DNA from: Ascidiella aspersa
Lineage: Eukaryota
NCBI GenBank assembly: GCA_963924565.1
Contig: OZ004615.1
Coordinates: 15,066,001-15,130,000 of the forward strand
Direction: 5' to 3'
DNA: 64,000 nucleotides
In this document: piece by piece, positions 56,101 to 64,000 of the stretch
Numbering within the stretch: the first letter of the stretch is position 1
How the letters are laid out: each line of letters opens with the position of its first letter
Position numbers and translations under genes: made by a program
The notes under the pieces: model-generated
What the model saw: the letters and a program-made list of their open reading frames with translations, nothing else
What the model was told of the DNA's origin: nothing
Database searches by the model: none

Positions 56101-59100
56101 GTATGCCTTTACTTACCACTGTCTAGAGAAGTCGTTCAACTTTAAGATTTTCTGCTTTGATATTTCTATATTGAAAACTTAACCACAAATTTAATAGCAT
56201 GATTAATATTAGTGTTTTTCATTTAGCGTGGTTACAAGACTTGTCTGGATTACAAAGTACGATTCTTCTGCGAGTGTGACGCCGTTTCCACTGCTGTAAC
56301 GAAAACAACACCTGTTTCCGAATCAACCACACCTGTTTCAAGCACCCTTCCAACAGAATCAACCACGCCGTTTTCCACTACTTTAAAATGGTTCGTTTGT
56401 ACATACGAAGGAAAGGACTACAACGTTGGTGACATGGTTGATAGTGGCCCATGCTATGAAGTTGTATGTGTTGGTGACCAAATCTTTAAAACCACAACGC
56501 TGTGTACAACAATTCCAAAAGAAACCTCATCAACAACACAAAAATCCGAATCTACAACTCCTTCCGATGAGTCGACGACTTCTCAATTTGGATCCACAAC
56601 CCCAGGATTGGAGTCGACAACGTCTGTTGTTGGCTGCGTGTACGAAGATATGCCTCTTCTAGTCGGTGATGAACTAATTTTGGATTGTCTTGAAGTCATT
56701 TGCGAAGAAGACGGAGTTTTAATTACAAAGAACACATGCACTGAGTCAACGACAAAGCCAATATCAGAGTCAACAACTCCTAAATCAGTTCCAACTACTC
56801 CAGAAACGGCATCAACCACGGTCACATCACCTGAAACAACCACCAGATCTGGTTGCTTCTACAAGGGCCATGAAATTCAAGCTGGATTTGTTGTCTTGAA
56901 TGGAACTTGCTACAAGTTTTACTGTGCCGGTAACCACATAATGAAAAATGAAAGCACCTGCACCACGACCCAACCTGCAACCACTACCGCTCCAGTTACA
57001 CCTGAGTCCACCACTCAGTTTGTCGGATGCTATTACGAAGGGAAACATCTTAACGTGGGTGACACAATCGAAGTAGATACATGTCGCCTGGTGATTTGTG
57101 TCAAAAATGGGGTTTCAGAAATCCGACAAATTTGCACTACTACTAAACCAATTTCGGAATCAACAACGCCAGGAATTGAATCTACAACTTCAGGTTTCGT
57201 TTCGACAACAACTTCAGGGGGTGTTTCTTCAACATCTGAACCGGAATCTACAACTACTTTAACATGGTTCGTTTGTACATACGAAGGAAAAGACTACAAT
57301 GTTGGTGACATTGTTGATAGTGGCCCATGCTATGAAGTTGTATGTGTTGGTGACCAAATCTTTAAAACCACAACGCTGTGTACAACAATTCCAAAAGAAA
57401 CCTCATCAACAACACAAAAATCCGAATCTACAACTCCTTCCGCTGAGTCGACGACTTCTCAATTTGGATCCACAACTCCCGGATTGGAGTCGACAACGTC
57501 TGTTGTTGGCTGCGTGTACGAAGATATGCCTCTTCTAGTCGGTGATGAACTAATTTTGGATTGTCTTGAAGTCATTTGCGAAGAAGACGGAGTTTTAATT
57601 ACAAAGAACACATGCACTGAGTCAACGACAAAGCCAATATCAGAGTCAACAACTCCTAAATCAGTTCCAACTACTCCAGAAACGGCATCAACCACGGTCA
57701 CATCACCTGAAACAACCACCAGATCTGGTTGCTTCTACAAGGGCCATGAAATTCAAGCTGGATTTGTTGTATTGAATGGAACTTGCTACAAGTTTTACTG
57801 TGCCGGTAACCACATAATGAAAAATGAAAGCACCTGCACCACGACCCAACCTGCAACCTCTACCGCTCCAGTTACACCTGAGTCCACCACTCAGTTTGTC
57901 GGATGCTATTACGAAGGGAAACATCTTAACGTGGGTGACACAATCGAAGTAGATACATGTCGCCTGGTGATTTGTGTCAAAAATGGGGTTTCAGAAATCC
58001 GACAAATTTGCACTACTACTAAACCAATTTCGGAGTCAACAACGCCAGGAATTGAATCTACAACTTCAGGTTTCGTTTCGACAACAACTTTAGGGGGTGT
58101 TTCTTCAACATCTGAACCGGAATCTACCACTACTTTAACATGGTTCGTTTGTACATACGAAGGAAAAGACTACAATGTTGGTGACATTGTTGATAGTGGC
58201 CTATGCTATGAAGTTGTATGTGTTGGTGACCAAATCTTTAAAACCACAACGCTGTGTACAACAATTCCAAAAGAAACCTCATCAACAACACAAAAATCCG
58301 AATCTACAACTCCTTCCGCTGAGTCGACGACTTCTCAATTTGGATCCACCACTCCCGGATTGGAGTCGACAACGTCTGTTGTTGGCTGCGTGTACGAAGA
58401 TATGCCTCTTCTAGTCGGTGATGAACTAATTTTGGATTGTCTTGAAGTCATTTGCGAAGAAGACGGAGTTTTAATTACAAAGAACACATGCACTGAGTCA
58501 ACGACAAAGCCAATATCAGAGTCAACAACTCCTAAATCAGTTCCAACTACTCCAGAAACGGCATCAACCACGGTCACATCACCTGAAACAACCACCAGAT
58601 CTGGTTGCTTCTACAAGGGCCATGAAATTCAAGCTGGATTTGTTGTATTGAATGGAACTTGCTACAAGTTTTACTGTGCCGGTAACCACATAATGAAAAA
58701 TGAAAGCACCTGCACCACGACCCAACCTGCAACCTCTAGCGCTCCAGTTACACCTGAGTCCACCACTCAGTTTGTCGGATGCTATTACGAAGGGAAACAT
58801 CTTAACGTGGGTGACACAATCGAAGTAGATACATGTCGCCTGGTGATTTGTGTCAAAAATGGGGTTTCAGAAATCCGACAAATTTGCACTACTACTAAAC
58901 CAATTTCGGAGTCAACAACGCCAGGAATTGAATCTACAACTTCAGGTTTCGTTTCGACAACAACTTCAGGGGGTGTTTCTTCAACATCTGAACCGGAATC
59001 TACCACTACTTTAACATGGTTCGTTTGTACATACGAAGGAAAAGACTACAATGTTGGTGACATTGTTGATAGTGGCCCATGCTATGAAGTTGTATGTGTT

Positions 59101-62100: not shown

Positions 62101-64000
62101 AGATCTGGTTGCTTCTACAAGGGCCATGAAATTCAAGCTGGATTTGTTGTATTGAATGGAACTTGCTACAAGTTTTACTGTGCCGGTAACCACATAATGA
62201 AAAATGAAAGCACCTGCACCACGACCCAACCTGCAACCTCTAGCGCTCCAGTTACACCTGAGTCCACCACTCAGTTTGTCGGATGCTATTACGAAGGGAA
62301 ACATCTTAACGTGGGTGACACAATCGAAGTAGATACATGTCGCCTGGTGATTTGTGTCAAAAATGGGGTTTCAGAAATCCGACAAATTTGCACTACTACT
62401 AAACCAATTTCGGAGTCAACAACGCCAGGAATTGAATCTACAACTTCAGGTTTCGTTTCGACAACAACTTCAGGGGGTGTTTCTTCAACATCTGAACCGG
62501 AATCTACCACTACTTTAACATGGTTCGTTTGTACATACGAAGGAAAAGACTACAATGTTGGTGACATTGTTGATAGTGGCCCATGCTATGAAGTTGTATG
62601 TGTTGGTGACCAAATCTTTAAAACCACAACGCTGTGTACAACAATTCCAAAAGAAACCTCATCAACAACACAAAAATCCGAATCTACAACTCCTTCCGCT
62701 GAGTCGACGACTTCTCAATTTGGATCCACAACTCCCGGATTGGAGTCGACAACGTCTGTTGTTGGCTGCGTGTACGAAGATATGCCTCTTCTAGTCGGTG
62801 ATGAACTAATTTTGGATTGTCTTGAAGTCATTTGCGAAGAAGACGGAGTTTTAATTACAAAGAACACATGCACTGAGTCAACGACAAAGCCAATATCAGA
62901 GTCAACAACTCCTAAATCAGTTCCAACTACTCCAGAAACGGCATCAACCACGGTCACATCACCTGAAACAACCACCAGATCTGGTTGCTTCTACAAGGGC
63001 CATGAAATTCAAGCTGGATTTGTTGTATTGAATGGAACTTGCTACAAGTTTTACTGTGCCGGTAACCACATAATGAAAAATGAAAGCACCTGCACCACGA
63101 CCCAAACTGCCACCACTACCACTCCAGTTACACCTGAGTCCACCACTCAGTTTGTTGGATGCTATTACGAAGGGAAACATCTTAACGTGGGTGACACAAT
63201 CGAAGTAGATACATGTCGCCTGGTGATTTGTGTCAAAAATGGGGTTTCTGAAATCCGACAAATTTGCACTACTACTAAACCAATTTCGGAATCAACAACG
63301 CCAGGAATTGAATCTACAACTTCAGGTTTCGTTTCGACAACAACTTCAGGGGGTGTTTCTTCAACATCTGAACCGGAATCTACCACTACTTTAACATGGT
63401 TCGTTTGTACATACGAAGGAAAAGACTACAATGTTGGTGACATTGTTGATAGTGGCCCATGCTATGAAGTTGTATGTGTTGGTGACCAAATCTTTAAAAC
63501 CACAACGCTGTGTACAACAATTCCAAAAGAAACCTCATCAACAACACAAAAATCCGAATCTACAACTCCTTCCGCTGAGTCGACGACTTCTCAATTTGGA
63601 TCCACAACTCCCGGATTGGAGTCGACAACGTCTGTTGTTGGCTGCGTGTACGAAGATATGCCTCTTCTAGTCGGTGATGAACTAATTTTGGATTGTCTTG
63701 AAGTCATTTGCGAAGAAGACGGAGTTTTAATTACAAAGAACACATGCACTGAGTCAACGACAAAGCCAATATCAGAGTCAACAACTCCTAAATCAGTTCC
63801 AACTACTCCAGAAACGGCATCAACCACGGTCACATCACCTGAAACAACCACCAGATCTGGTTGCTTCTACAAGGGCCATGAAATTCAAGCTGGATTTGTT
63901 GTATTGAATGGAACTTGCTACAAGTTTTACTGTGCCGGTAACCACATAATGAAAAATGAAAGCACCTGCACCACGACCCAAACTGCCACCACTACCACTC
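29184..64000 (+). CDS. Giant secreted gel-forming mucin (MUC2/MUC5/VWF-like D1-D2-D'-D3, 4 CysD, PTS and Cys-module repeats); 3' end beyond the window
   Basis: Exons: 29184-29239, 29852-29883, 34428-34613, 35523-35685, 36087-36240, 36425-36502, 37110-37257, 37600-37718, 38035-38188, 38603-38834, 39522-39665, 40432-40657, 41201-41416, 41757-41850, 42415-42585, 42846-42974, 43219-43333, 43640-43781, 44165-44316, 44935-45046, 45397-45526, 45906-46102, 46495-46602, 47012-47157, 47470-47609, 48016-48161, 48610-48694, 49016-49430, 49651-49831, 50243-50351, 50817-50861, 51037-51081, 51435-51473, 52449-52569, 53039-53199, 53717-53985, 54137-54335, 54870-54956, 55233-55401, 55891-56008, 56227->64000. 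Phases are consistent throughout. Motifs: HYSTFDG/HYKTFDG/HYKSFDG (VWD), GLCG-x-F/YN three times, C8/TIL/E modules, [13 protein letters not shown] (D3) and WxxW CysD motifs. Linkage of exons 1-2 to exon 3 across a 4.5-kb intron is the least certain part. Confidence 0.92.
31513..31802. mobile_element. hAT-type MITE
   Basis: TIR CAGTGTTTCTTAACC / GGTTAAGAAGCGCTG; 8-bp flanks ATTTAGCG and ATATAGCG. Confidence 0.72.
34428..34613 (+). other. Sushi/CCP-like module exon at the mucin N-terminus
   Basis: Phase 1-1 exon encoding [14 protein letters not shown]...[12 protein letters not shown]...[18 protein letters not shown], with the typical sushi C-terminal TC-x2-G-x-W...C pattern. Confidence 0.6.
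35758..36054. mobile_element. hAT-type MITE
   Basis: CAGGGGTTCC...GGAATCACTG ends, GCGGCACAC subterminal repeats, flanks CTCTTATC and CTCTAAAC. Confidence 0.62.
39031..39138. repeat. Short inverted repeat (MITE-like) with TGACGTCA in each arm
   Basis: GGTCTAAAACAATGACGTCAC / GTGACGTCATTGTTTTAGATC. Confidence 0.6.
52283..52305 (-). mobile_element. tRNA-derived SINE head fragment (B box / T-arm hairpin)
   Basis: The minus strand reads GTCGTGAG-TTCGAAC-CTCACGAC, an 8-bp stem with a 7-nt TTCGAAC loop. No full cloverleaf is visible. Confidence 0.4.
52725..52957. mobile_element. Second foldback with a degenerate hammerhead-like core
   Basis: About 50-bp inverted arms centred on TATATTTGTTAAACCAACGTTTCG / CGAAACGTTGGTTTAACAAATATA. 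The minus strand reads CTGATGA...GCCGAAACGTT at about 52768-52803. Confidence 0.5.
53380..53678. mobile_element. hAT-type MITE in a mucin intron
   Basis: CAGGGCTGTGGAGTC...GACTCAGAAGCACTG ends, internal GAGTCC/GACTCC repeats, and a perfect 8-bp TSD GTTAAAAC on both sides. Confidence 0.8.
56389..64000 (+). repeat. Coding tandem repeat, 876-bp (292-aa) unit, 8 full units plus 1 partial, inside one giant mucin exon
   Basis: TGGTTCGTTTGTACATAC recurs at 56389, 57265, 58141, 59017, 59893, 60769, 61645, 62521 and 63397. The frame is open from 56227 to the window end, which is why it is absent from the ORF track. Confidence 0.97.

Follow-up and report, generated by a model that had tools for sequence, protein, structure and literature searches.

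A hemolectin-type mucin-like gene of the tunicate Ascidiella aspersa with 116 four-cysteine modules in two central arrays

A 64-kb stretch of the Ascidiella aspersa genome (GCA_963924565.1, contig OZ004615.1:15066001-15130000, forward strand), here called the window, was analyzed together with the next 120 kb downstream. The window numbering was carried on into the downstream part, and such positions are marked "extended" (contig position = extended position + 15066000). On the plus strand, a phase-consistent gene chain ran from 34428 to a stop near 98324 (extended), which comprised 69 exons and ~11,600 codons after hand corrections, with some exon ends approximate. It was assembled from a codon-model gene finder and splice scores, and several low-scoring exons were removed or trimmed manually ahead of the junction checks. 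The gene is of a known kind, a hemolectin-type "3+2 VWD" mucin-like gene, and its central arrays contain 116 modules of four cysteines, which are referred to as beads below.

The part of the first bead exon that fell in the window (56227..64000, plus strand, first module at 56398) was covered by stranded RNA reads, and its frame was open over 2591 codons (56227-63999). This frame contained 35 modules with the spacing C-x16/17-C-x4-C-x11-C. The repeat unit was 292 amino acids (aa; 876 bp) and comprised four module types, named A, B, C, and D. A preliminary description of the window had listed the same 35 modules, four types per repeat and spacing, and all of these were recovered. When the protein was shuffled 2000 times, the mean number of modules was 0.0095 and the maximum was one. 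Eight complete repeats were compared, and they showed 0-14 nt differences per 876 bp. The whole of bead exon 1 (56227-66943, extended, plus strand) held 48 modules, 12 each of A, B, C, and D. Bead exon 2 (71592-85248, extended, 13,657 bp, plus strand) started with the end of a VWC domain and an LDLa domain, followed by 68 modules of the same types. All 116 beads possessed four Cys, and the cyclic order A-B-C-D was kept in both arrays. The open frames of the two exons spanned 3575 and 4571 codons, and their AG/GT ends were phase-compatible. A genome-wide search with modules C and D, which scored the best candidates only, gave 88 matches, 87 of them at the host locus. The 88th (contig C6, E=0.03) lay in a T/P-rich frame, and no bead was found within the surrounding 10 kb (best 4.1 bits).

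The linkers between the beads were 22, 38, 43, and 46 aa long in the window and consisted of 59-68% S/T/P, in agreement with the earlier account of acidic S/T/P linkers of ~20-45 aa. Over the whole of exon 1 they were mildly acidic (D/E 8.8% vs. K/R 4.1%) and Cys-free. Their lengths varied from 21 to 46 aa, with one linker of 66 aa. S/T/P made up 60-62% of the linkers, which are presumably O-glycosylated, and S+T amounted to 29-31% of the whole arrays. Bead residues represented 50 and 55% of the two arrays. Under assumed lengths of 3 nm for a bead and 0.25 nm for each linker residue, neighbouring beads would lie 8-15 nm apart in exon 1; for exon 2 the estimate is 8-20 nm, and the arrays would measure ~0.58 and ~0.70 µm. 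The four types shared 19-42% identity in exon 1; type B1 had a net charge of -9, and type C carried two N-glycan sequons.

The DNA depth of the repeat relative to unique sequence was 14.5x in run X1 and 11.0x in run X2, compared with 12 assembled copies; both runs may come from the assembly's own sample. Bead exon 1 is transcribed. In RNA run X4, of which ~6% was sampled and 140 reads were placed, the repeat had a depth of 11-29 and all first mates were on one strand, so that the transcription on which the preliminary description had staked its reading was observed. Upstream, four exon-bearing bins had a depth of 0.7-1.4 on the same strand, and the repeat depth divided by 12 copies was of about the order of these covered exons. 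The exon bins 53668-54351 and 55891-56061 had no reads, the intron bin 55036-55206 had a depth of 0.32, and the depth was only 0.03 at the unique start of bead exon 1; a repeated element at 53326-53496 had reads on both strands. Contigs from run X3, which was of unrecorded kind, contained GT-AG joints at 53199-53717 and 53984-54136 that agreed with the gene model. When the two bead exons were joined to their neighbours computationally, the reading frame was kept across the 5′ and 3′ junctions of each.

The modules are under purifying selection. Between matching types of the two arrays, the non-synonymous divergence (dN) was 0.26 and the synonymous divergence (dS) was 1.86 over 143 codons (dN/dS ~0.14, with synonymous sites near-saturated), and 18/35 to 26/36 residues (51-72%) were identical. 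Among 11 repeats of exon 1, the modules contained two non-synonymous and five synonymous variants and the linkers 10 and eight, respectively, which are small numbers. A tree of 43 modules and 39 columns, whose bootstrap had not settled, joined types A and C (90/86); B and D formed a second, open group (82/88), which took in one foreign row. This suggested that an AB pair was doubled into ABCD before the arrays split.

The bead is predicted to take an E/VWC N-leaf/FnI-type fold. The AlphaFold model of type A1 (42 aa, 12-row alignment) showed a predicted local distance difference test (pLDDT) value of 91 and five strands, which formed a hairpin and a three-strand sheet. Foldseek ranks 1-7 were the VWC domains of CCN3 and collagen II and the D'D3/E' region of VWF (prob 0.95-0.99, E 0.18-0.47). 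In the VIA search of 48,161 chains, the top 20 (Z 3.2-4.6) comprised 19 mucin/VWF, VWC, FnI or MSMB chains and one ROS1-NELL2 chain. The fold was assigned because these top rows agreed among themselves and not from the scores, which were weak because the model was only 42 aa long. A single-sequence model of one whole repeat was of low confidence (pLDDT 46, predicted template modelling score (pTM) 0.20); each of the four beads formed hairpins in it, and the linkers were unstructured.

E modules pair C1 with C4 and C2 with C6, and on this basis each bead would contain two internal disulfides, C1-C4 and C2-C6 in the E numbering. If both bonds form, no Cys is spare for covalent cross-links, because the number per bead is an even four. 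The position of the lost C3 was occupied by V, F, I or L in 12/12 alignment rows, and column 33 was I or V in 12/12. The C-x-C pair was absent from every bead type, and there was no C-leaf. FnI domains have a C-x-C pair and the disulfides 1-3 and 2-4, and the beads can therefore be called FnI-like in fold only. Thus, of the E- or FnI-like fold that had been proposed for checking with AlphaFold and Foldseek, the prediction itself stood, with VWC, E, and FnI structures at the top ranks, but no match was significant on its own and the C-x-C of FnI was missing.

Sequence-based searches gave weak matches for single beads. Twelve modules were compared with Pfam, and SVWC was matched by 4/12 (best E=0.0024), Fn1_2 by 5/12 (best E=0.0043), and VWC by 1/12, all weakly. 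The PDB sequence search with the bead profile returned only chance glucokinase rows (E>=0.13). In the ESM Atlas there was no usable match for the whole repeat, and the single-bead leads stayed under 0.8, one of them a VWC cluster. DUF7210 was not adopted as the bead family: its E=4.6e-6 was summed and below cut-off, and the match covered a 16-residue stretch.

The host gene comprises, in order, D1, D2, D'D3, a short proline/threonine/serine-rich (PTS) region with four CysD domains, bead array 1, and F5/8C. It continues with a TIL-like unit, a fifth CysD, TIL-VWC, LDLa, bead array 2, a six-Cys module, D4, D5, VWC-type repeats, and the cystine knot. All of these are encoded on the plus strand. 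The first modelled exon (34428..34613, from the gene model) had no Pfam match, and its Cys pattern was sushi/CCP-like by eye. The gene start and a signal peptide were not found; the scan for them gave one candidate, at 33540, for which no phase-compatible splice donor was seen; it was rejected because it was unverified. The D1 assembly (VWD1-C8-TIL-E1) was distributed over many exons at 35523..39665 (Pfam VWD E=2.6e-12, TIL E=3.6e-10), with its E1 module split across the exons 38603-38834 and 39522 onward. The D2, TIL'-E', and D3 assemblies followed at 39522..49150, with a Pfam VWD match at the start of D3 (E=1.3e-4) and D2 from the gene model only. The short PTS and four intron-split CysD (WxxW) domains lay at 49016..56290 (Pfam Mucin2_WxxW and gene model), and the fourth CysD ended within the first codons of bead exon 1. 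F5/8C (F5_F8_type_C, E=1.7e-8), the TIL-like unit, and the fifth CysD were found at 67388-71130 (extended). Pfam also identified the LDLa (E=1.9e-6) and VWC at the start of bead exon 2. D4, D5, the VWC-type repeats, and the cystine knot were located at 85531-98324 (extended; Pfam VWD E=2.2e-4 and 9.6e-15, Cys_knot, DAN), and the spliced frame ended in a stop after the cystine knot.

Pfam was run on 17 exon pieces of this gene, 14 of which matched, and the tally was VWD 4, TIL 1, Mucin2_WxxW 4, and F5_F8_type_C 2, with Cys_knot/DAN on the last two exons. The gene thus showed the hemolectin-type hallmark of three VWD, a central F5_F8_type_C (one domain found), and two further VWD. It also had the C-terminal cystine knot that is the hallmark of gel-forming mucins, and VWD/TIL assemblies like theirs were supported by Pfam VWD on the D1 and D3 exons and by TIL on TIL1. 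C8-3 had three more Cys than C8-1, and TIL3 had one more than TIL1. By eye, these extra Cys lay at the places of the inter-chain cysteines of MUC2, which the available part of the MUC2 work gives as Cys1088 and Cys1130 (PMC6739602); no alignment was obtained between two D3 exons and PDB sequences. The word-based homolog search with the VWD2 exon was blank among 29 candidates, and it covered proteins of <=2000 aa only, which makes it no sign of absence.

The origin of the bead was examined within and outside this gene. The Cys spacing of E1 was 16-2-1-6-4, and its C1, C2, C4, and C6 fell at 16-4-11 as in the beads, as had been noticed before. Seven six-Cys E/VWC modules of the host gene fitted the pattern, and four of them had the bead-like C4-to-C6 distance of 11. 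Scored with the bead profile, E' came first among them at 18.1 bits; the pre-D4 module (9.4) and E1 (8.6) followed, and none of the others exceeded 2.5. Many foreign modules equalled or exceeded the host's own, up to 26 bits. In the tree, the beads grouped weakly with foreign four-Cys modules and apart from the six-Cys modules of the host (64/81), with P0017_101 as the exception; this split could arise from the shared loss of two Cys alone. The beads had been proposed to be E modules that lost the C3-C5 pair. They do lack C3 and C5, but descent from the host's own E modules followed neither from the scores (E' 18.1 vs. E1 8.6 bits) nor from the tree. Three sources are conceivable for the bead: an E module, the N-terminal half of an eight-Cys VWC, or an older free-standing module. 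A single E-like module at 68816-69010 (extended) kept C-x-C and had lost C2 and C6; the host gene thus shows both reduced forms.

Among 1.84 billion protein representatives, the bead profile matched 23 proteins at E<=0.001, of which 21 were inspected and 10 were looked up. The inspected proteins formed three groups: six-Cys E/VWC modules, eight-Cys VWC-type domains, and free-standing four-Cys beads on S/T/P linkers. In the eight-Cys VWC-type domains of P0009, P0012, P0017, and P0018, the N-terminal half had the bead Cys pattern. Free-standing beads were found in a protein of the chiton Liolophura sinensis (XP_064614883, 18 beads) and in P0003 (nine beads), and beads adjoined CysD in two partial records of Owenia fusiformis (CAH1788468 and CAH1788469). 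When the Owenia fragment was used as the query, P0028 (eight beads), P0029, and P0031 were also recovered, together with a Branchiostoma protein whose modules are related. The suggested profile search across taxa thus extended the bead on S/T/P linkers to a chiton, an annelid, and other proteins, but no VWD scaffold was visible there. The word-based homolog search with the bead alignment was blank over 5365 candidates (proteins <=2000 aa); it missed known relatives and is therefore no sign of absence.

Two further observations concerned these relatives. P0001, P0003, P0028, P0029, and P0031 were likely secreted invertebrate proteins that consisted largely of longer four-Cys beads, which carried conserved Trp residues and were placed on T/P linkers; the only named record of this family was auto-labelled kielin/chordin-like. 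P0008, P0010, and P0020 (Mya, Dreissena, and Elysia) were small mollusc proteins with 2-4 tandem bead-like four-Cys modules without PTS, which are handy fold models.

Hemolectin-type "3+2 VWD" proteins contain three VWD-C8-TIL units and two further VWD, with F5/8C in the centre and CysD inserted near it, according to the part of the survey that was available (PMC4948705). The host gene had the same plan of 3+2 VWD, F5/8C, and CysD. However, the same text gives the insect members at most a very small PTS, whereas ~7,900 residues of beaded PTS flank F5/8C in the host. It names protostome groups for the combination of CysD and F5/8C and mentions no bead arrays in the part seen, whereas the present gene is from a tunicate. 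As in vertebrate MUC2, MUC5AC, and MUC5B, to judge from portions of their published descriptions (PMC9712336, PMC10082768, PMC6739602), the gene has D1-D2-D'D3, PTS that contains CysD, a giant exon of repeats, several VWC units, and a cystine knot. In the vertebrate mucins, plain PTS repeats are broken by CysD, whereas half of the central residues of the host are predicted to be folded. Four VWD and no F5/8C or LDLa appear in the architecture given for them in those portions, in contrast to five VWD and both other domains here. The earlier account had contrasted such modules with the CysD domains of vertebrate mucins; the host also has five CysD domains, so that the beads are additional to them and do not replace them. 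Ciona Ci-GFM1 is likewise an ascidian VWF/mucin-type polymer scaffold, but in the accessible part of its description it is a protein of 2880 aa with four D assemblies, a PTS of 50 aa, and one chitin-binding domain (CBD), and no bead array is described (PMC6109156). Small disulfide modules on PTS strings are a known theme, e.g., the chitin-binding domains of insect gut proteins; several CBD and PTS domains per protein are mentioned in the same part (PMC6109156).

The bead resembled the VWF/mucin E module and the VWC N-leaf in its predicted hairpin and three-strand sheet and in the spacing of C1, C2, C4, and C6. It differed from the E module, which has six Cys, a C-x2-C-x-C core, and three disulfides, in that it had four Cys, no C-x-C, and no last-strand tryptophan. 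Unlike either of them, it stood free between Cys-free linkers and not after TIL or before a C-leaf. The first four Cys of SVWC (PF15430) and of P0009, P0012, P0017, and P0018 were similarly spaced (mostly 17-19, 4, 11), without C3/C5, but a further four Cys (the C-leaf) follow in these domains, which the beads do not have. The Owenia proteins, XP_064614883, P0003, P0028, and P0029 shared free-standing C-x16-23-C-x3-4-C-x10-16-C modules on S/T/P linkers; they had 2-18 beads per protein, mostly with longer loops, and no VWD scaffold was visible in them (the Owenia records being partial). Frog skin mucins carry trefoil or sushi modules on PTS. In the literature, covered by titles and the starts of abstracts and with subscription journals mostly uncovered, no description of such bead arrays in a mucin was found. 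The scaffold is therefore known, and we could not find the beaded central architecture described; the reduced VWC/E-fold module also occurs, unannotated, in other invertebrates.

What the arrays do can be approached from the scaffold and the predicted fold. A serious possibility, if short of a probable one, is that beads pair like with like and in register, and so zip the central region into a stiff segmented strand. The N-leaf of VWC in the C-terminal part of MUC2 consists of a hairpin and a three-strand sheet, and it mediates dimerization in all VWC domains, as stated in the available part of that structural study (PMC10082768). The zipper is favoured because the bead is predicted to be a VWC N-leaf alone and the N-leaves of MUC2 dimerize. 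The cystine knot would produce tail-to-tail dimers and D3 head-to-head polymers. Because the host has both the cystine knot and the extra D3 cysteines, two chains may lie parallel and in register, the knot aligning them from the C-terminus. Many weak non-covalent A-A, B-B, C-C, and D-D contacts could then add up along ~0.6 and ~0.7 µm. Such pairing would extend the N-leaf-zipped stalk of the MUC2 C-terminus through the central region, and the secreted material would form strands and not a loose bottle-brush gel. We also considered a wider and decidedly doubtful version, in which the free-standing four-Cys N-leaf bead would be an old bilaterian mucus module that was amplified 116-fold into a four-letter zipper. 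It would form a micrometre-long double-stranded fibre, possibly a feeding-net strand, with the array lengths (~0.6 and ~0.7 µm), and not the distance between beads, setting its scale.

Several observations weigh against in-register pairing and the fold on which it depends. Self-pairing might be hindered by the acidity of B1 and the sequons of type C, unless the charge is screened by Ca2+ or a low pH. Beads of the same kind occurred in P0001, P0003, and P0028, where no cystine knot or VWD was visible, and they therefore do not need the host scaffold. The kept order and the dN/dS of 0.14 would fit any folded domain that was duplicated as a block. None of the 330 Foldseek rows (0/330) reached E<=0.001, and the best VIA hit, a MUC2 D3 fragment, was weak (Z 4.6, root mean square deviation 2.3, 42 aligned). 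No read or contig from the RNA and run X3 data crossed any bead-exon junction, and the place of the bead exon in the mucin mRNA therefore rests on phase-compatible splice sites.

Somewhat less likely than zipping, the beads may be passive structures that fold but bind nothing, and that lengthen and stiffen the chain, divide the glycosylated string into short segments, and restrain proteolysis at a reduced cost in glycan. The share of bead residues, about half of each array, is consistent with this, as are the hairpin beads and unstructured linkers of the low-confidence repeat model (pLDDT 46, pTM 0.20), and a dN/dS of 0.14 would be expected from a small disulfide fold alone. However, one type would suffice as a spacer, whereas four types that are 19-42% identical were each kept at 51-72% across the arrays. 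The related FnI and VWC folds, moreover, usually bind partners.

Binding of a foreign partner is an unlikely function. Each bead would weakly bind a net or tunic protein, a polysaccharide fibre or a microbial surface, and 116 copies would give avidity. The SVWC matches (4/12 modules, best E=0.0024) point in this direction, and an insect SVWC protein binds microbial surfaces according to the part of the report that was available (PMC11515477). Foreign beads were fused to C-type lectin, ShK, VWD, and CysD domains; the host itself has F5/8C, and a chitin-binding domain is present in its Ciona relative Ci-GFM1 in the part of the description cited above (PMC6109156). No ligand was identified, however, the SVWC match was weak and the beads have no second half of SVWC, and short glycosylated linkers would shield them from large surfaces.

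According to the preliminary description, cross-links or meshes, for example those of a filter-feeding net, could be held at a fixed spacing by the beads; this is very unlikely. The host is a tunicate, the whole arrays of ~0.58 and ~0.70 µm (by the assumed lengths) are on the mesh scale, and a mucin-5AC-like transcript in the ascidian endostyle is mentioned in the available part of one study (PMC9953650). But the bead spacing of 8-15 or 8-20 nm is far below the smallest ascidian mesh, 0.2 x 0.5 µm in the portion of the source seen (PMC8790370). The linker length is not constant (21-46 aa, and 66 aa in one case), no Cys is left over if both predicted bonds form, and nothing in these data points to endostyle expression. 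An assembly-inflated or untranslated repeat, which the near identity of the repeats (0-14 of 876 nt), the missing junction reads to neighbouring exons, and the RNA depth of 0.03 at the unique exon start might suggest, is largely refuted by the depth ratios of 14.5 and 11.0 against 12 copies (in runs that may be the assembly's own sample), the frames that stay open over 3575 and 4571 codons and have phase-compatible AG/GT ends, the single-strand RNA reads on the repeat, and the dN/dS of 0.14.

The central regions of mucins are treated as disordered glycosylated strings that a few CysD interrupt, and half of the central region is predicted to be folded here. Bead arrays are likely to escape PTS and domain scans, because their S+T content is 29-31%, their repeats are nearly identical, and no Pfam match is above the cut-off. 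More of them may be hidden in invertebrate genomes, and the Owenia fragments are in line with this. Should the beads zip chains, they would offer a molecular route from gel to fibre and be a candidate component of structured invertebrate mucus; if they are passive, the architecture is unusual and of modest interest. With its 36 residues, the bead can readily be expressed and tested.

Other features were observed near the gene and elsewhere in the genome. Two short intronic elements, 52642-52812 and 53326-53496, had DNA depths of ~12,000-28,000 vs. 64-103 and are probably dispersed repeats; bead exon 1 is followed by a sequence that looks similar to them. About 540 bp past the mucin stop, a 296-aa frame (98861-99748, extended) matched GIY-YIG (E=4.3e-6) and is likely a fragment of a Penelope-type element. 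A 10-bp tandem repeat at 26808-27201 contained 39 copies with 99% matches. A minus-strand multi-exon gene at ~4900-12900 of the window encoded a CUB domain (Pfam E=3.9e-7), a short linker rich in T, P, and D (10619-10843), and, judged by eye, a serine protease domain of the trypsin type. The genome gave at least 60 CysD (WxxW) matches, which were clustered on contigs C1-C4 and C6-C9 and included many single-exon domains, a large repertoire. An intron-containing gene with a GH6 domain was located on contig C5:19612351-19615590; to our knowledge, animal GH6 is tunicate-specific.

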